Virus record (IMG/VR): IMGVR_UViG_3300032579_000006
Direction: 5' to 3' (one strand)
Length of the DNA stretch: 52,418 nt
DNA from: a virus
Lineage: Duplodnaviria; Heunggongvirae; Uroviricota; Caudoviricetes
The notes beneath the pieces are model-generated. The model was not told the origin of the DNA. It saw only the letters and a list, made by a program, of their open reading frames with translations, and ran no database searches. A program made the position numbers and the translations under genes. Shown in pieces: positions 13,129 through 41,365 of this stretch (position 1 is the first letter of the stretch; every line of letters starts with the position of its first letter).

Positions 13129-15669
13129 ATGGCAATTAGAGAAGTATTCTACTCCGGTTCCAAACCCAATGTCCATCCAAGAGAAAAATTTGCTGAATCA
13201 CTAGAAGATGCTAGGAATCAGTGTACGACTGAGCATTTTTGGATTATCAACGAGTTTTGTGACTACCGTAAATTTGATTGGGACTTTGATTTCGAGCTAT
13301 TACCTGACGAAGATATTTGGGCAGAGGCACACGACAATGTATGGCCTAGCCAACATCAAAAAGATAGTGGTACATGGCTGTGTCCTAAGGTAGCCGGTGA
13401 TTATACTATCTATCGAACCGATGTTCCCCCAATTCAACGCAAGAATGAAATCAATGATTTTTGGATTATAGATCCGGCCCTGGATAAATCTAGGTTTGAC
13501 TTTTCTTGGCACCCAGATCCTACGTCTCCTCCATACATATATCAATTCGGTACTCTGCTCGATGAAAACGACGGACCCAGATACGTCACTCCCTATAATG
13601 ACGGAACCATAGTACATCTAGAACGCAAGGAGGTCATACTAGAAGACCTAGAGTTTTCGAAGTACTACATCACTACTACATTGGAAGATTTAATCAACGA
13701 CCACACTAATGAAATCTTTTGGGCATTGAATCCTGAAATTGATTATTCTGGGTTTGACTTTAAATGGGTCCCTGACAGTAAGAACGTATATCACATAAAT
13801 GCATTTGGTACGAAAGACAATATAAACTCCCAGACTTACTTTGTTAATGGTAAGATGTGGGCACGTGGTTATCGGGACATTAACTACATTGAGGATAAGG
13901 TACTAGATGTACGAACCAAGATCGATATTTTCTTTGTCGATAAAGGAAATCCTCAGGCACAAGAACGCTTTCAGCAATTATCTGAGCGTATGGGCAACGT
14001 AACTAAAACTAGATATCTGAACAGCTGGGTTGACACGATCAATCGTTGTGTGACTAAATCAACTACCAATCTATGTTGGATTCTCAATAGTGAATTAGAC
14101 TATTCGTCATTTGAGTTTGATTTCTATCCTAGCCCATGGCAGATGAACTTAGTTCATGTGTTTGGAACTCAGTGGTCACACTGGGGAACAACCTTTATGG
14201 TTAACAAAAATACATTTGCTGATGATACCAAATATATAAAAGTCATTGAGCATTTGCCTAATATAAATTTTGTAAAACGATCACCTGCTAAGGCAGTTGA
14301 TTGTCTTTATGCTATAGTAATCATCGACCATGGTAACGGTGTTGATACAGTAAAAGATGATCTACTCAGTAAAAATCTGAGCGAAAGAAACATCATTGCT
14401 GTGAAATATGATACCAATTATCTAAAAACATTCAAGGAGGTACTCAGTAAATTAGATGTCAATCGTGAACATTATGTATGGATTTGTAGTAGCGTGTGTG
14501 ATTATAGCAGATTTGATTTTAGCTATATCTGCGATCCGTACACCAAAGAACAACTCCACGTCTTCCCGAGCGGTAATCAAAAATTAGGAGACACGTTTCT
14601 AGTAAACGTCAACAAGCTGCGCAAATTGATAGCAGATATGCATCGTCTAGAAGACTATGAAAAGATTAATTATAATCAACATCAAGTTGTCTCAAGATTG
14701 ATGACACCCACAACTATCGAAGGTGCATATTTTCCAAATGAAACACATATGGATTATGCTAGAAATTATGAATGGGATTTTCCTTATGTAACTCTAGTAA
14801 CTGAAGAAAACTGGGATATGGATCCTGAAATTGATCCCGAACCTATGTGTCTTTGGTCACCCGAACAGAAAGCAATCATTATTTCTAGTACAGGTGCAAC
14901 TAGAGTTACGATTCCTCGCGAGGCTAAAAACTATGTCAAAAGTGAACTGTATGATTACCCGTATATAAAGCGAGCAAAAAAACTAACCAAATCTAAACCG
15001 ATGGACATAGTGTATCTCAGTAACGGTGAAGCCGGGGCCGAAAAAAACTGGGAGCATCTACTTCAAATTACTAAAAACATACCAAATAGGGTAGTCAGAG
15101 TGGATGGAGTTAATGGTCGAGTTGCTGCATATCATGCTGCTGCCGAAGCCAGCGAGACACCATGGTTATTTACGGTATTCGCTAAGTTACACATCAATTC
15201 TAATTTTGATTGGTCATGGCAACCAGATCGAATGCAAGCACCTAAGCATTATATCTTTCATGCGAAGAATCCGGTCAATGGATTGATCTACGGTCACCAA
15301 GCGATGATCGCGTATAATAAGCAATTAGTGCTAGAGAATGACGGTTATGGACTAGACTTTACGTTGGATGACCTGCACGAAGTTGTTCCACTCATGTCCG
15401 GTACTGCAAACTATAACACTGATCCGTTCTCTACTTGGCGTACCGCATTCCGTGAAGTGGTCAAATTGAAGGCCGAAGATACCGACATTGCCCGAGAGCG
15501 ATTAGAAGCTTGGCTTACTAAAGCTGAAGGTGATTTTGCAGAATATAGCATCAAGGGTGCAAAAGACGCAGAAGCCTATTACGATGAAGTTGATGGCGAT
15601 TTTGATGCACTGCGATTGAGCTACGAGTGGGAATGGTTAAAATCACGCTTCGTGCAAAAATACGGTTGA
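13129..15669 (+). CDS. 846-aa protein of tandem glycosyltransferase-like domains
   Basis: Motif W(I/A)(I/L)x4-5D(Y/K)xxF(D/E)(F/W) recurs about 6 times. Last domain has DIVYLSNGE..AEKN, RVDGVNG..AYHAAA, FSTWRTAFREVVKL. Confidence 0.65.
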   Translation: MAIREVFYSGSKPNVHPREKFAESLEDARNQCTTEHFWIINEFCDYRKFDWDFDFELLPDEDIWAEAHDNVWPSQHQKDSGTWLCPKVAGDYTIYRTDVPPIQRKNEINDFWIIDPALDKSRFDFSWHPDPTSPPYIYQFGTLLDENDGPRYVTPYNDGTIVHLERKEVILEDLEFSKYYITTTLEDLINDHTNEIFWALNPEIDYSGFDFKWVPDSKNVYHINAFGTKDNINSQTYFVNGKMWARGYRDINYIEDKVLDVRTKIDIFFVDKGNPQAQERFQQLSERMGNVTKTRYLNSWVDTINRCVTKSTTNLCWILNSELDYSSFEFDFYPSPWQMNLVHVFGTQWSHWGTTFMVNKNTFADDTKYIKVIEHLPNINFVKRSPAKAVDCLYAIVIIDHGNGVDTVKDDLLSKNLSERNIIAVKYDTNYLKTFKEVLSKLDVNREHYVWICSSVCDYSRFDFSYICDPYTKEQLHVFPSGNQKLGDTFLVNVNKLRKLIADMHRLEDYEKINYNQHQVVSRLMTPTTIEGAYFPNETHMDYARNYEWDFPYVTLVTEENWDMDPEIDPEPMCLWSPEQKAIIISSTGATRVTIPREAKNYVKSELYDYPYIKRAKKLTKSKPMDIVYLSNGEAGAEKNWEHLLQITKNIPNRVVRVDGVNGRVAAYHAAAEASETPWLFTVFAKLHINSNFDWSWQPDRMQAPKHYIFHAKNPVNGLIYGHQAMIAYNKQLVLENDGYGLDFTLDDLHEVVPLMSGTANYNTDPFSTWRTAFREVVKLKAEDTDIARERLEAWLTKAEGDFAEYSIKGAKDAEAYYDEVDGDFDALRLSYEWEWLKSRFVQKYG

Positions 15670-15695
15670 CATGCAATGTCATATATGATTAAATA
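15666..15695 (+). promoter_or_regulatory. Overlapping sigma70-like and TAAATA late promoters for tmRNA
   Basis: TTGACA(15666-71)-17 nt-TTAAAT with TG extended -10; TAAATA at 15690-95. Confidence 0.65.
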
Positions 15696-15699
15696 GTAT

Positions 15700-16030
15700 T
15701 TGTTCGTTGATACGGACTTAAAACCGGGGAAGACAGGGGTGCGATTCCCCTCGCCTCCACCAGTAAACACACGATAACAGGACGCTGGCTCTGTGAAGCG
15801 GGATATCGGGGTAGCTGCCGAGAAGACGGGGAGAGCATCGTGTGTTTTCTTATGGGGGCGTATAGTATCGATTCACGGCTAGTAGGAAAGTGGAGAACAC
15901 GGTAAGAAACGACCGTCAATCAGTTCAAATTACTAAATGCAAACGAAAATGATGCATATGAAGGCCTTGCGTTAGCCGCATAAGTCTTTTGGGCTTTGCT
16001 AGTTGAGCCTCGAAACAGAATCAACTAGCA
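15700..16030 (+). ncRNA. ssrA: Circularly permuted (two-piece) tmRNA
   Basis: Acceptor piece first: GAC-AGGGG/TGCGATT/CCCCT T-arm, CGCCTCC-A-CCA ending 15762. Coding piece starts GGGGGCG at 15854 and pairs with it (G3:U70). Resume context TAAAT-GCA; tag ANENDAYEGLALAA* at 15939-15983; 3' hairpin TGCTAGTTGA/TCAACTAGCA. Ends are approximate. Confidence 0.93.
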
Positions 16031-16103
16031 CCTATAAAACCTTTAAATATGATATATCGTCCTATAGGTCATAAATAATTTTGACATGTTAGGAGAACAA
16101 ATC

Positions 16104-16475
16104 ATGAAAAACAAGTCAATTATTGCAATCGCTGCATTGGTAGCACTAAGTTTGGCTGCACCTGCATCCGCACACCACTCGTTCGCAATGTTCGACAACC
16201 AAAAGTCGGTGACATTGGAAGGAACAGTAAAAGAATTTCAATGGACTAATCCGCATTCTTGGATTCAACTAATTGTGACTGATTCCTCTGGTAAGCCAGT
16301 TGAATGGTCAATCGAAGGCGGTAGCCCAAATGGTCTATCACGTTCCGGTTGGAAGCGCACTTCATTGAAGTCCGGCGATAAGGCTGTCGTAGTTGTACAT
16401 CCTCTTAAGGATGGCACGAACGGTGGCTCGCTCGTATCTGTTGCGGTTAATGGACAACCAATCGGCAGTCGTTAA
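16104..16475 (+). CDS. Secreted DUF6152-like protein
   Basis: Signal peptide ending APASA, then HHSFAMFD, VTLEGTV..FQWTNPHS, W.IEGGSP; AGGAG SD; TAAATA at 16072-77. Confidence 0.75.
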   Translation: MKNKSIIAIAALVALSLAAPASAHHSFAMFDNQKSVTLEGTVKEFQWTNPHSWIQLIVTDSSGKPVEWSIEGGSPNGLSRSGWKRTSLKSGDKAVVVVHPLKDGTNGGSLVSVAVNGQPIGSR

Positions 16476-35800: not shown

Positions 35801-36781
35801 ATGGCTAGTCTAGCAGAAATCCGTGCGCGGTTAACGGCACAAGAAAATCGCAGTCAGACCAAGGCTTCTGGCACTCAATCAGATAACGCAATCTATCCTT
35901 TCTGGAATATTGACGAAGGAGCAACTGCTTCTATTCGTCTGTTGCCAGACGGCAATCCTACTAACGAATTCTTTTGGGTAGAACGTCAAGTTATCAAGCT
36001 TCCGTTCAATGGCGTTAAGGGTGATTCCAACATGAAGCAAGTTACTGTACAAGTTCCTTGCGTCGAGATGTATGGCGATAATTGCCCGGTTCTCGCAGAA
36101 GTTCGTCCGTGGTACAAAGACGACACTCTTAAGGACCTTGCTAACAAGTATTGGAAGAAGCGTTCATATCTTTATCAAGGCTTTGTTCGCCAAAATCCAC
36201 TAGGTGATGATCAAACTCCAGCGAACCCAATTCGTCGCTTCATCATCTCCCCGCAAATTCAGACTATTATCAAGGCATCTTTGATGGATCCGGAACTTGA
36301 TGAATTGCCAACCGACTACGTTCACGGTCTTGACTTCAACATCAAGAAGACTTCTAAGGGCGGTTATGCAGACTATTCAACTTCCACTTGGTCTCGTAAG
36401 GAGTCACCGCTTACGGAAGCCGAGCAAGCAGCGATTGATTCGTTTGGGTTGTACAATCTCGCTGACTTCTTGCCAAAGAAGCCAAGCGAAGCCGAACTTC
36501 GGGTCATTAAGGAGATGTTTGAAGCATCAGTTGATGGACGCCCGTATGACACTGATAAGTGGGGCGCATATTATCGTCCGTATGGCATTGAAGCTCCGTC
36601 CAGCACCGCACAAGCACAAACTGCTTCTGCTGCACCTAGTGCACCGACTACGGTAGCATCTGCGCCAATCGATGAGCCTCCTTTCGAAGTAGATCAACCA
36701 ATCGTTGTTCCTACTGCACCAACGAGCGATAAGGCACAGGACATTCTAAAGATGATCCGCGAAAGACAGAATAAGGCCTAA
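35801..36781 (+). CDS. Single-stranded DNA-binding protein, T4 gp32-like
   Basis: IRLLPDG, VPCVEMYGDNCPV, YWKKRSY, FNIKKTSKGGYADYSTS, acidic/Pro-rich tail. Confidence 0.9.
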   Translation: MASLAEIRARLTAQENRSQTKASGTQSDNAIYPFWNIDEGATASIRLLPDGNPTNEFFWVERQVIKLPFNGVKGDSNMKQVTVQVPCVEMYGDNCPVLAEVRPWYKDDTLKDLANKYWKKRSYLYQGFVRQNPLGDDQTPANPIRRFIISPQIQTIIKASLMDPELDELPTDYVHGLDFNIKKTSKGGYADYSTSTWSRKESPLTEAEQAAIDSFGLYNLADFLPKKPSEAELRVIKEMFEASVDGRPYDTDKWGAYYRPYGIEAPSSTAQAQTASAAPSAPTTVASAPIDEPPFEVDQPIVVPTAPTSDKAQDILKMIRERQNKA

Positions 36782-36786
36782 TTAGG

Positions 36787-36813
36787 TTTGGGGAGGAGAA
36801 ATCCTCCCCAAAA
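36787..36813. terminator. Rho-independent (possibly bidirectional) terminator
   Basis: TTTGGGGAGGA-GAAA-TCCTCCCCAAAA perfect hairpin. Confidence 0.8.
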
Positions 36814-36833
36814 TTCTGGCTAAGGAGAATACC

Positions 36834-37064
36834 ATGACCAATTCAGATGATAGATACCGTGCAATAAAGCAAGGTAAAAAACTGTTGGAGGAACTGTGTG
36901 ATCCAGGCAAAACTCCAAGAGTTCCGAGTATAGTAAGAGACCGGGCGCGGAGCGTACTAAGACATTTTCCGAATGACTATGAATTAGACCAAATCGCAGT
37001 GAATAGTCCCGAATTACTCGAAAAATTATCAGTTAATGATAAGATGAAACAGATTGTAAGATAG
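36834..37064 (+). CDS. Small conserved-type phage protein
   Basis: DDRYRAI...KTPRVP..VRDRARSVLRHFP; AAGGAG SD. Confidence 0.75.
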   Translation: MTNSDDRYRAIKQGKKLLEELCDPGKTPRVPSIVRDRARSVLRHFPNDYELDQIAVNSPELLEKLSVNDKMKQIVR

Positions 37065-38944: not shown

Positions 38945-39700
38945 ATGCACCCAGCATTCACTTCTCTAGATGATACTAACGAAGATGATGACTTCTTCGC
39001 TTCGTTAACCGCAACTACACAAGCAAAGCAATCTGCGGAAATGTTTACTACAAAAGAAGACGTTTTGGTTCTTAGTTGTGTATTGTATAGATTAAAAACA
39101 ACCGCTACCACTGAAGAAGACAAAAATTATTGGAACGCATTTGGTCTACTTTCTGTACCCACAGACAAAATTACACAAGACGATAGAATACTAGCAGACC
39201 ACGTTCGTTCTTATTTTAATAGTAAGTTAGTATTGGCTAGAATACGAGGTGAATCTCTATCTAAGTACAGAACTGATCTATCTAAATTTTTAAATACAGC
39301 TTATTCTATCGCTGACGGATACATGTATCCTATTAACTTTGCCGGATTGATATACAAGCTTCCTTACTTTCATGAATATGATCAGGGTTTGTATGAAGTA
39401 TTTGGCGGCGACTATTACAATCTTCGTGGACCTGGTAATCGATTAAGTGGCAACAAAACTCTGACATTTATCAAGCGATTGGATCCTCATCGTAGACTGC
39501 TTGCGGTTGAAGATTTTTGGTTTTCGGACGAACACGGTAACCGAATATTGCTAACGATTGACAAGAAGAATCCACTCACTCCATTGTTCGAAACTGTTCT
39601 TAATCATAAGGTCAAGATTGAGGCAAATTATGATCCTCGTCATAAGGACACCCTCAATTTTTATCAAGCTAACTCTTGGAAATTCGTTTCGGTCGATTAA
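38945..39700 (+). CDS. Hypothetical protein
   Basis: 251-aa ORF with AAGGA SD and a sigma70-like promoter upstream. Confidence 0.75.
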   Translation: MHPAFTSLDDTNEDDDFFASLTATTQAKQSAEMFTTKEDVLVLSCVLYRLKTTATTEEDKNYWNAFGLLSVPTDKITQDDRILADHVRSYFNSKLVLARIRGESLSKYRTDLSKFLNTAYSIADGYMYPINFAGLIYKLPYFHEYDQGLYEVFGGDYYNLRGPGNRLSGNKTLTFIKRLDPHRRLLAVEDFWFSDEHGNRILLTIDKKNPLTPLFETVLNHKVKIEANYDPRHKDTLNFYQANSWKFVSVD

Positions 39701-40124: not shown

Positions 40125-40159
40125 GCACGATCAATGGTGCATGAAAGGGTTGATTTAAA

Positions 40160-41365
40160 GTGAATTACGAATTCCCTGTAATTAAGAATATCTCAGAGGT
40201 GCTTCCTGCGATTAAGGATGCTCCTGAGTTCGTTGTGGCTGAGCGTGACGGCTATACCGTCATCAACTACAACGTAATGATGTCAGATACCTTTCCCACC
40301 ATTAACGTCGCTGGCGGTTCTGCTAAGATGCGTGCAGAACGCTCTTTGCACAATATGCTGCGGCGTGAGTGTCGCGGTATCATCTTCTGTTCGAAGACCG
40401 GAGACCTTCTGCGGCGTCCCCTGCATAAATTTTTCAATGTCAACGAAAGAGAAGAAACCCAAGACCATGTTTTGGATCTGTCTCGTCCGCACGTTATTCT
40501 TGAAAAGCTTGACGGCTCTATGCTAGTTCCTTTCATGCTCAACGACGAAGTTCGTTGGGGTACTAAGATGGGTCTGACTGACGTTGCTGCTCCTGTTGAG
40601 GAATTCGTTAAAAATAATCCTAAGTACGAGGAATTCGCTCGCGTTTATCTAACTCAATCTTTCATCACCCCTATCTTTGAATGGTGTTCGCGTAAGCAAC
40701 GCATCGTCATCGATTACGGGAGCAAAGATCACTTAGTCCTTATCGCTCTCCGTTTTAATGACACAGGTGAGTATGTTAAGTATGATAAAATGACCTTTAT
40801 TGCTAAGAACTGGAATCTCCCAGTCGTAAAGGCTTTCGAGCCTGCTACGGATATGAATGAATTTATGGCTTATGTTGCTGGTCTGAAAGATATGGAAGGC
40901 TTTGTGATTCGTTTCGATGACGGTCACATGGTTAAGGCTAAGTGTGACTGGTACGTTCAAATTCATAAGGCTAAGGAAGCCATTCTGCAAGATCGTAATA
41001 TCGTGGAAATGATCCTGAGCAACACCCTCGATGATGTTAAGGCTCATCTTCTTACTGAAGATCGAGTTCGCCTGGAAGAATTTGAGGATAAGGTTGTCAC
41101 TCGCATCAAGTATCTGGCTCGTGAACTGCATGACAATGTGGCTCATATTCGTGCCCGAAACGTTGATCGTAAGAACTTTGCGCTGAACGAATCTCAAAAT
41201 TTTGATTCGCTCATGAAAGCAGCGATCTTCTCGCTGTTTGACTGTTGTACTATTGAGTCTGCCCAGGAACATATTACTAAAACTGTGGCTATCAAACTGT
41301 CGAGCAACAAGAGCTATGACCTGATTAAGGACGTTTGGTTTAAAGGAATTAAACATAATGACTAA
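40160..41365 (+). CDS. rnlA: RNA ligase 1 (T4 Rnl1-like)
   Basis: RECRGIIF, LHKFFNVNE, EKLDGS (motif I), FEW, MEGFV (IV), MVKAK (V). Confidence 0.92.
   Translation: MNYEFPVIKNISEVLPAIKDAPEFVVAERDGYTVINYNVMMSDTFPTINVAGGSAKMRAERSLHNMLRRECRGIIFCSKTGDLLRRPLHKFFNVNEREETQDHVLDLSRPHVILEKLDGSMLVPFMLNDEVRWGTKMGLTDVAAPVEEFVKNNPKYEEFARVYLTQSFITPIFEWCSRKQRIVIDYGSKDHLVLIALRFNDTGEYVKYDKMTFIAKNWNLPVVKAFEPATDMNEFMAYVAGLKDMEGFVIRFDDGHMVKAKCDWYVQIHKAKEAILQDRNIVEMILSNTLDDVKAHLLTEDRVRLEEFEDKVVTRIKYLARELHDNVAHIRARNVDRKNFALNESQNFDSLMKAAIFSLFDCCTIESAQEHITKTVAIKLSSNKSYDLIKDVWFKGIKHND

Follow-up and report, generated by a model that had tools for sequence, protein, structure and literature searches.

The stretch analysed here, a window of 52,418 nucleotides (nt) from the IMG/VR virus record IMGVR_UViG_3300032579_000006 ('the window' always means this whole stretch), carries at positions 15701-16029 of the plus strand a gene for transfer-messenger RNA (tmRNA, the product of ssrA). 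This RNA releases ribosomes that have stalled and marks their incomplete proteins for degradation. The gene is circularly permuted, of the alpha type and made up of two pieces, and we consider it very probably a functional alphaproteobacterial-type ssrA borne by a T4-like jumbo phage. A first-pass annotation of the bare sequence had called a phage-encoded circularly permuted two-piece tmRNA at 15700-16030 and had named ARAGORN and the Rfam alpha_tmRNA model as suitable checks; both scans were positive and the call stands. ARAGORN detected a permuted tmRNA at 15669-16074 (+) with the tag ANENDAYEGLALAA, the phage's own and ending in ALAA as the annotation had read it. In Rfam, the model tmRNA_permuted (RF04321) matched end to end at 15701-15983 with 113.8 bits (cut-off 47, E 1.6e-21), and alpha_tmRNA (RF01849) matched 15662-16029 with 78.2 bits (cut-off 50, E 1.3e-19). 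Both scores exceed the curated family thresholds, and the tmRNA call is far beyond chance. RF01849 was the top model of clan CL00001, whose beta and cyanobacterial models had lower scores and were suppressed; its score reaches only 78 bits because the extended helix P2 of the alpha model is largely missing here.

The elements of the gene follow each other in the permuted order, with the CCA at 15760-15762 coming first, then GGGGGCG at 15854-15860 and then the tag at 15939-15983. Reading the sequence directly, we found the acceptor piece with its encoded CCA upstream of the coding piece and a 7-base-pair (bp) acceptor stem with the G3:U70 pair, in which G15856 pairs with U15756, both as first described in the annotation. 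The parts of the gene are listed below with the source of each assignment.

15701-15762 (+): acceptor piece, 62 nt (Rfam alignment, ARAGORN 3' tRNA domain)
15701-15705 (UGUUC), 15724-15726 (CCG) and 15729-15731 (GAA) (+): 5' strand of P2 (Rfam alignment)
15735-15751 (+): T arm AGGGG/UGCGAUU/CCCCU (read from the sequence)
15752-15758 (+): acceptor 3' strand CGCCUCC, followed by the discriminator A and by CCA at 15760-15762 (read from the sequence)
15763-15853 (+): intervening spacer, 91 nt, predicted to be excised
15854-16029 (+): coding piece, about 176 nt (RF04321 and RF01849 alignments, ARAGORN, covariation)
15854-15860 (+): acceptor 5' strand GGGGGCG, with G3 at 15856
15872-15874 (UUC), 15876-15878 (CGG) and 15895-15899 (GAACA) (+): 3' strands of P2 (Rfam alignment)
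15899-15916 (+): hairpin of the PK1 pseudoknot region, ACGGU/ACCGU (Rfam alignment)
15939-15983 (+): tag frame with resume codon GCA at 15939, 14 codons (ANENDAYEGLALAA) and stop codon TAA at 15981-15983 (ARAGORN)
15998-16029 (+): 3' terminal hairpin GCUAGUUGA / UCAACUAGC with a loop holding GAAACAGAA (Rfam, folding, relatives)

The 3' end of the coding piece was set at the end of the RF01849 match and is to that extent a putative one. The loop motif GAAACAGAA of the terminal hairpin is also part of the alpha_tmRNA consensus. No U-run follows this hairpin and a terminator scan was negative at its position; because the U-run is missing, the hairpin is not a canonical intrinsic terminator. The spacer on its own folds into a long hairpin (minimum free energy -29.1 kcal/mol, z = -2.4), and in the predicted fold its basal stem AACACACGAU/AUCGUGUGUU would set the CCA end beside the 5' end of the coding piece, a placement that would be expected for a precursor cut by tRNA-processing enzymes. 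We rejected the spacer as a known RNA or a coding sequence, as it matches no Rfam family even at E<=10, contains no ATG-initiated frame within its 91 nt and is too short for a gene. An antisense open reading frame (ORF) of 76 amino acids (aa) at 15689-15919 was likewise discarded as a gene; its apparent conservation is that of the RNA on the opposite strand.

Relatives of the gene were gathered by exact-pattern scans of viral and metagenome contigs and confirmed with Rfam. We aligned 12 full-length members of this lineage, all of them from viral or metagenome contigs, and counted base pairs both directly and with RNAalifold. The acceptor stem and its G:U pair are invariant in 12 of 12 sequences, while all five pairs of the T stem show compensatory changes (e.g. 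CG/AU/GC and GC/CG). Inner P2 covaries as well (GAA/UUC to UGU/GCA, C:G to U:A), and outer P2 (UGUUC/GAACA) pairs in every one of the 12 sequences without any variation. The basal stem of the spacer is preserved through compensatory changes in spacers that range from 43 to 91 nt in the relatives, and in the 3' hairpin the pairing is kept with differing stem sequences around the conserved GAAACAGAA loop. An 18-nt stretch containing the hairpin of the PK1 region is identical in 18 viral contigs.

The tags of the lineage occur in at least 10 different forms, with all frames open, a length of 13-18 codons and an end in LAA or MAA. Besides ANENDAYEGLALAA in this phage we found ANENFVSQEFALAA, ANDNSAFETRLAA, ANDNFATEGYALAA, ANDNSMMETRLAA, ANDNSVMESYALAA, ANDNESMDYALAA, ANDNESMDTRLAA, ANDNIAYGSYALAA and ANDNEAFVELALAA. 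An eleventh form, ANFIASNDNEFVAMKMAA in L182, is longer, has its NDN motif inside the tag and ends in MAA; it alone does not begin with AN(D/E)N, and in all forms the tag is variable in its middle. Purifying selection thus acts on the RNA scaffold and on both ends of the tag, and the alignments show the pattern that a translated tag would have if both its start and its degron were functional. If the tmRNA tags proteins, peptides carrying ANENDAYEGLAL would be expected, in dependence on host SmpB.

Next, we compared the gene with its closest relatives and their surroundings. It is 91% identical over 302 nt to the contigs behind L003, L004 and L009, the flanking DNA of which shows no similarity to ours and the few shared proteins of which are 28-39% identical; since the scaffold matches while the flanks do not, the RNA is conserved for its own sake. 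Divided by segment, the identities between the window and the three closest relatives (L003, L005 and, for the coding piece only, L007) were as follows.

Acceptor piece: 98-100%
5' part of the coding piece: 92-100%
Tag: 67-72%
3' tail: 52-65%

The substitutions relative to L003 are concentrated in the tag, where they affect 14 of 45 positions compared to 8 of 241 elsewhere (Fisher p = 1e-7). The spacer has two forms, 91 nt and 79 nt long and unrelated to each other, which are mixed among the scaffolds. Mosaic spacers, substitutions focused on the tag and unrelated flanks together suggest that the gene behaves as a conserved mosaic cassette moving between unrelated phages. When 15690-15991 of the window is set against L003, L004, L005, L007, L008 and L009, four tags and two spacers are seen on near-identical scaffolds, and the carriers of this mosaic cassette are phages with unrelated flanking DNA. 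The tmRNA gene is also present on a 314-kb contig.

A comparison with the closest host ssrA, which had been proposed in the first-pass annotation for predicting the host, was carried out and revealed no close bacterial copy in the collections searched. The exact 27-mer covering T arm and acceptor had no match in the genomes of 185,579 species (one genome per species). The looser pattern GCGATTCCCNNCGCCTCCACCA returned 118 loci, nearly all of them standard tmRNAs from many phyla, and ARAGORN called a permuted tmRNA at only two of these, in Siccirubricoccus soli and in an uncultured alphaproteobacterium; in both, similarity to the window gene is confined to the T arm. In a BLAST search of 401 sampled alphaproteobacterial genomes 100 genomes gave a match, and all but three of the matches were short (23-43 nt) and located in the T arm and acceptor; one match of 61 nt with 79% identity lies in the coding part. 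As far as these collections reach, the lineage appears to occur only in phages.

The window belongs to a record of 258,859 bp, which is linear, estimated to be 73% complete and has a G+C content of 40.6%. Its genes include a gp23-type major capsid protein (327 bits), TerL, UvsX, a gp32-type single-stranded DNA-binding protein and an Rnl1-like RNA ligase. The nearest cultured relative is Sinorhizobium phage Phosso (capsid protein 72.9%, TerL 50.2% identical), with Pseudomonas phage PA5oct (68.8% and 49.0%) and a Vibrio phage (70.3% and 43.9%) only slightly behind; for Agrobacterium phage Atu_ph07 TerL is 52.4% identical. This set of gp23, TerL, UvsX and gp32 genes together with the nearest phages identifies the carrier, as judged from protein similarity, as a T4-like jumbo phage of the Rak2/Atu_ph07/PA5oct-like group. 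The phage DNA was found in 20 freshwater or lake-water metagenome runs; a search of sequencing runs for the stretch matched these 20 DNA runs and 0 RNA runs. The annotation had noted that no smpB is present in the window, and this holds for the entire record and also for the complete genome of Phosso, which carries a tmRNA. Because both genomes lack smpB, the RNA presumably works with host SmpB, and such reliance would be normal for this phage group.

The first-pass annotation had placed the gene under both sigma70 and late promoters. Directly upstream of the RNA we found two overlapping elements.

15666-15694 (+): sigma70-like promoter, TTGACA at 15666-15671, 17-nt spacer, TTAAAT at 15689-15694
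15690-15695 (+): late-type core TAAATA, overlapping the -10 element

We searched the whole genome with the sigma70 pattern TTGAC[AT]-N16-18-T[AT]NN[AT]T, using shuffled sequences as control, and found 68 sites compared to 27.6 in the shuffles. The intergenic 7.6% of the genome contains 27 of the 68, among them the tmRNA site. A stricter promoter scan requires an A at position 2 of the -10 element; the tmRNA site has a T there and is hence not listed by it. De novo word counts gave (G)A-TAAATA-(C), a T4-late-like motif, as the dominant upstream signal, with ATAAATA in 36 upstream regions compared to 3.2 expected and 54 TAAATA sites among 130 upstream regions. The late box of the tmRNA gene reads TTAAATAG and departs from the consensus on both flanks, with a T at -1 (4 of 54 sites) and a G at +6 (3 of 54). 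In relatives, a canonical TATAAATA lies at the same distance from the RNA start, and some also have a -35-like hexamer. The sigma70 half of the earlier claim is thus supported by an enriched class of sites, the late half less so in this phage, with its off-consensus box. On these motif counts a sigma70-type reading is well supported as the stronger of the two here, and a reading with both promoters appears reasonable for the lineage. The intergenic sigma70-like sites cluster at 2.7-14.4 kb, beside the tRNA genes, and examples of the promoter motifs in the window are found at 15666-15694, 19436, 35688, 39707 and 47524.

From these features we infer how the RNA would be processed, charged and used for tagging, when it would be expressed and what the phage may gain from it. 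A single transcript would start about 6-8 nt past the TTAAAT/TAAATA box, at roughly 15700, and the spacer hairpin would hold the halves of the acceptor stem next to each other. Enzymes of the host that process tRNA would cut after the CCA (15762) and, by RNase P, before G15854, and the 91-nt spacer would be discarded. The products would be a 62-nt acceptor RNA and a coding RNA of about 176 nt, held to each other by the acceptor stem and P2. Host alanyl-tRNA synthetase (AlaRS) would then charge the RNA with alanine by way of G3:U70, and host SmpB and EF-Tu would deliver it to stalled ribosomes, where translation would resume at GCA and add ANENDAYEGLALAA, with the C-terminal LAA serving as a degron for Clp proteases. 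The likely benefit would be the recycling of ribosomes while the T4-like infection breaks down the mRNA of the host and silences its transcription.

A different benefit, directed proteolysis over ribosome recycling, would follow if the tmRNA and phage-encoded Clp proteases formed a tag-and-destroy pathway, either for amino-acid recycling or for the removal of host or aborted proteins, with the tag tuned to the phage ClpX. The same genome indeed encodes a set of Clp proteins, which lies outside the window.

G000 36458-37003: ClpP, 307.9 bits (cut-off 249)
G000 39230-39466: ClpS, 82.7 bits
G000 40129-41325: full-length ClpX, 522.5 bits (cut-off 359)
G000 101818-104082: ClpA-like ATPase, 789.7 bits, below the equivalog cut-off

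The phage ClpX retains the zinc finger, the Walker A motif, the GYVG pore loop, the RKH loop and the IGF loop for docking to ClpP, and it matches solved ClpX structures at E 2e-121; no SspB was found in the phage genome. The tag ends in LAA, the ClpX recognition element of E. coli ClpXP, and the middle of the tag differs between phages with near-identical scaffolds. However, the fixed ends and variable middles are also usual in bacterial tmRNAs, the Clp genes and the tmRNA lie about 160 kb apart, and the case is built from the co-occurrence of genes. The Clp set appears to be a trait of the phage group that is not tied to the tmRNA, because Phosso, Atu_ph07 and PA5oct all have ClpX, whereas a tmRNA is found only in Phosso. 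Clp genes have already been described in this group and are explained by replication control, virion assembly or host manipulation (PMC6102473, PMC11242549, PMC7824862), and the first two explanations (PMC6102473, PMC7824862) count against a role in reading the tag. We therefore regard the pathway as an unlikely account of the benefit, and it is just as doubtful that the phage tag is read by the phage ClpXP. In its fullest form the proposal would have the phage supply a tmRNA that writes an LAA degron together with ClpXP, ClpS and ClpA-like readers and borrow only SmpB, on a phage-only mobile cassette whose tag middle possibly diversifies to suit the phage's own unfoldase or adaptor; this, too, seems improbable to us. 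The presence of Clp genes beside a tmRNA with an LAA tag nevertheless makes the reading of phage tags by phage proteases directly testable, and this co-occurrence and the so far phage-only distribution of the cassette are the only aspects that might repay more work.

The RNA might instead act as a decoy or competitor against host trans-translation, taking up SmpB or EF-Tu or replacing the host tag. A phage that lacks SmpB must compete for that of its host, and the authors of the Lacusarx genome proposed that a phage tmRNA counteracts host tagging (PMC5648845). Moreover, an inhibitor of endogenous tmRNA is on record in mycobacteriophage DS6A, which is mentioned in PMC11915505 as having a tmRNA-like RNA without coding sequence that was reported to be inhibitory to host trans-translation. 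DS6A and our phage would have in common a phage-borne tmRNA relative acting on host trans-translation. However, the DS6A RNA has no tag frame, whereas the gene studied here is complete, with a full resume context and a conserved tag frame that ends in a degron, and the ends of this frame are under selection across the lineage, which would be needless for a pure decoy. This makes the decoy very unlikely. Least credible of all is a non-functional passenger, i.e. a decaying copy or fragment of a host ssrA left by imprecise excision at an ssrA attachment site: prophages do often integrate into ssrA and carry its fragments (PMC9004378), but the gene is complete with both pieces, promoter and tag in a genome of T4-like lytic type, the collections searched yielded no near-identical bacterial copy, and compensatory changes have preserved the lineage in many phage contigs that are unrelated in other respects.

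Several points weigh against a functional tmRNA and should be set beside the evidence in its favour. For the gene and its close relatives alike, the case is drawn from sequence. The record is about 73% complete, which leaves room for a phage smpB, and the compatibility of the RNA with the SmpB, AlaRS and proteases of the host depends on which bacterium that host is. Regarding the structure, PK1 is a putative pseudoknot with one stem seen, the hairpin at 15899-15916, and the segment that lies midway in P2 of the general permuted model has a non-canonical form in this sequence. Outer P2 (UGUUC/GAACA) furthermore competes with a local hairpin, and covariation cannot choose between the two because both are invariant.

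The first-pass annotation had also concluded that the host is alphaproteobacterial, and here the evidence is divided. In favour are the alpha-type architecture, with the alpha model scoring best in its clan, the tmRNA of Phosso, the nearest cultured phage, which is alpha-type as well, and 33 nt of T arm and acceptor that are identical to those of Caulobacter phages. On the other side stand the missing close bacterial copy (185,579 species; 401 alphaproteobacterial genomes), the Pseudomonas and Vibrio phages that are nearly as close as Phosso, the low G+C content of the phage (40.6%) and the precedent of Methylophilales phage Melnitz, whose tmRNA is alpha-type although its host is not alphaproteobacterial (PMC9004378). 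Weighing both sides, we find an alphaproteobacterial host somewhat more probable than another one. A phage's tmRNA type is not enough to name its host. The collections searched contain no close bacterial copy, and phages that are otherwise unrelated carry the gene.

The type example of the alphaproteobacterial two-piece tmRNA is ssrA of Caulobacter crescentus (Keiler, Shapiro and Williams 2000, as cited in PMC9004378). With the alphaproteobacterial family RF01849 the gene shares the order of acceptor piece, spacer and coding piece, the 7-bp stem with G3:U70, the encoded CCA, the resume context AAAUGCAAACGA and the 3' hairpin with AACAGAA in its loop. The tags ANENDAYEGLALAA, ANDNFATEGYALAA and ANENFVSQEFALAA of the phage lineage resemble in style the Caulobacter tag AANDNFAEEFAVAA, the string of which is confirmed in PMC1233412. 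The gene differs from the alphaproteobacterial family in being phage-borne, with no bacterial near-copy found, and in its T loop, which reads UGCGAUU compared to GGCGGUA in the alpha consensus.

Phage two-piece tmRNAs have already been published, and the novelty implied by the title of the first-pass annotation was overstated; the gene is a well-supported further example of phage tmRNA genes that are already described. Buchholz et al. 2022 counted tmRNA genes in 402 of 18,146 phage genomes, and among 133 unique phage tmRNA structures 53 were two-piece, 50 of these from aquatic phages (PMC9004378). The gene is not a rarity, as two-piece forms account for about 40% of the unique phage tmRNAs in that 2022 count. 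The 2025 tmRNA database holds 79 phage sequences (PMC11915505), tmRNA and SmpB are among the genes for translation that Al-Shayeb et al. 2020 report from huge phages (PMC7162821), and a tmRNA is annotated in Sinorhizobium jumbo phage AP-J-162 (PMC11242549) and in Sphingobium phage Lacusarx (PMC5648845). A published parallel is that of Melnitz and the pelagimyophages (PMC9004378), T4-like aquatic phages in which an alpha-type permuted ssrA likewise lies behind a promoter and for which no phage smpB is reported. The Melnitz type carries a glnA-type glutamine riboswitch in the 3' domain, whereas no riboswitch was detected here by Rfam at E<=10 over 15500-16200; it occurs in marine myophages of about 140 kb, unlike the freshwater jumbo phage studied here, and belongs to a different sequence lineage. 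To the published picture of large aquatic phages carrying their own ribosome-rescue RNA our gene adds a well-documented case.

In Phosso (PV764938.1) we found an unannotated tmRNA at 349596-350198, alpha-type and permuted, with 113.3 and 108 bits. Phosso resembles our phage in having a tmRNA, no smpB and a ClpX, but in its tmRNA the spacer is unusually long at 410 nt, the T loop reads GGCGGUA and the tag is ANDNVSTKVALAA, and no extended nucleotide similarity to the window gene was found. The 410-nt spacer contains no convincing ORF in its three forward frames. The corresponding region (L164:1458-2147, minus strand) equals about 349553-350242 of PV764938.1, where GenBank has no feature. With its unannotated tmRNA Phosso could serve for experiments. 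In the phiCbK-like Caulobacter phages (CcrColossus, CcrBL10, phiCbK and others) the 33 nt running from AAGAC through T arm and acceptor to CCA are identical to ours; BLAST gives a 36-nt match with 94-97% identity, and their genes match the permuted and the alpha models. The rest of the RNA, its tag and its spacer share no sequence relationship with the window gene, and these phages are high-G+C siphophages with a cultured host, unlike our phage.

Downstream, the tmRNA unit is bounded by the following gene, which is its outer limit and no part of the tmRNA.

16071-16475 (+): late box ATAAATA at 16071-16077, ribosome-binding site GGAG, start codon ATG at 16104, secreted DUF6152 protein

Thousands of bacterial proteins are 77-87% identical to the DUF6152 protein and come from several phyla, including Verrucomicrobia and Gammaproteobacteria; by these similarities it appears to be a periplasmic gene of unknown function that was captured recently. 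As these similar proteins span several phyla, we rejected it as an indicator of the host. On the upstream side, an ORF of 846 aa (13129-15669) ends just before the tmRNA promoter; it has no Pfam or PHROG match, and its sole phage match is a 140-residue stretch in Ralstonia phage RsoM2USA with 30% identity. The record contains only five tRNA genes (Lys-CTT, two Met-CAT, Gly-TCC and Gly-GCC; G000:C1:4238-7374), all within the region of early promoters and some 195 kb away from the tmRNA; most relatives, by contrast, have a tRNA-Gly(TCC) at a distance of 2-3 kb from theirs. The first-pass annotation had further suggested that the tmRNA may counter RNA-cleaving defences, and the only item in the window that bears on this idea is the T4 Rnl1-like RNA ligase at 40160-41365 (PHROG 562, E 1.5e-71). 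T4 Rnl1 repairs tRNA that has been cut by anticodon nuclease.

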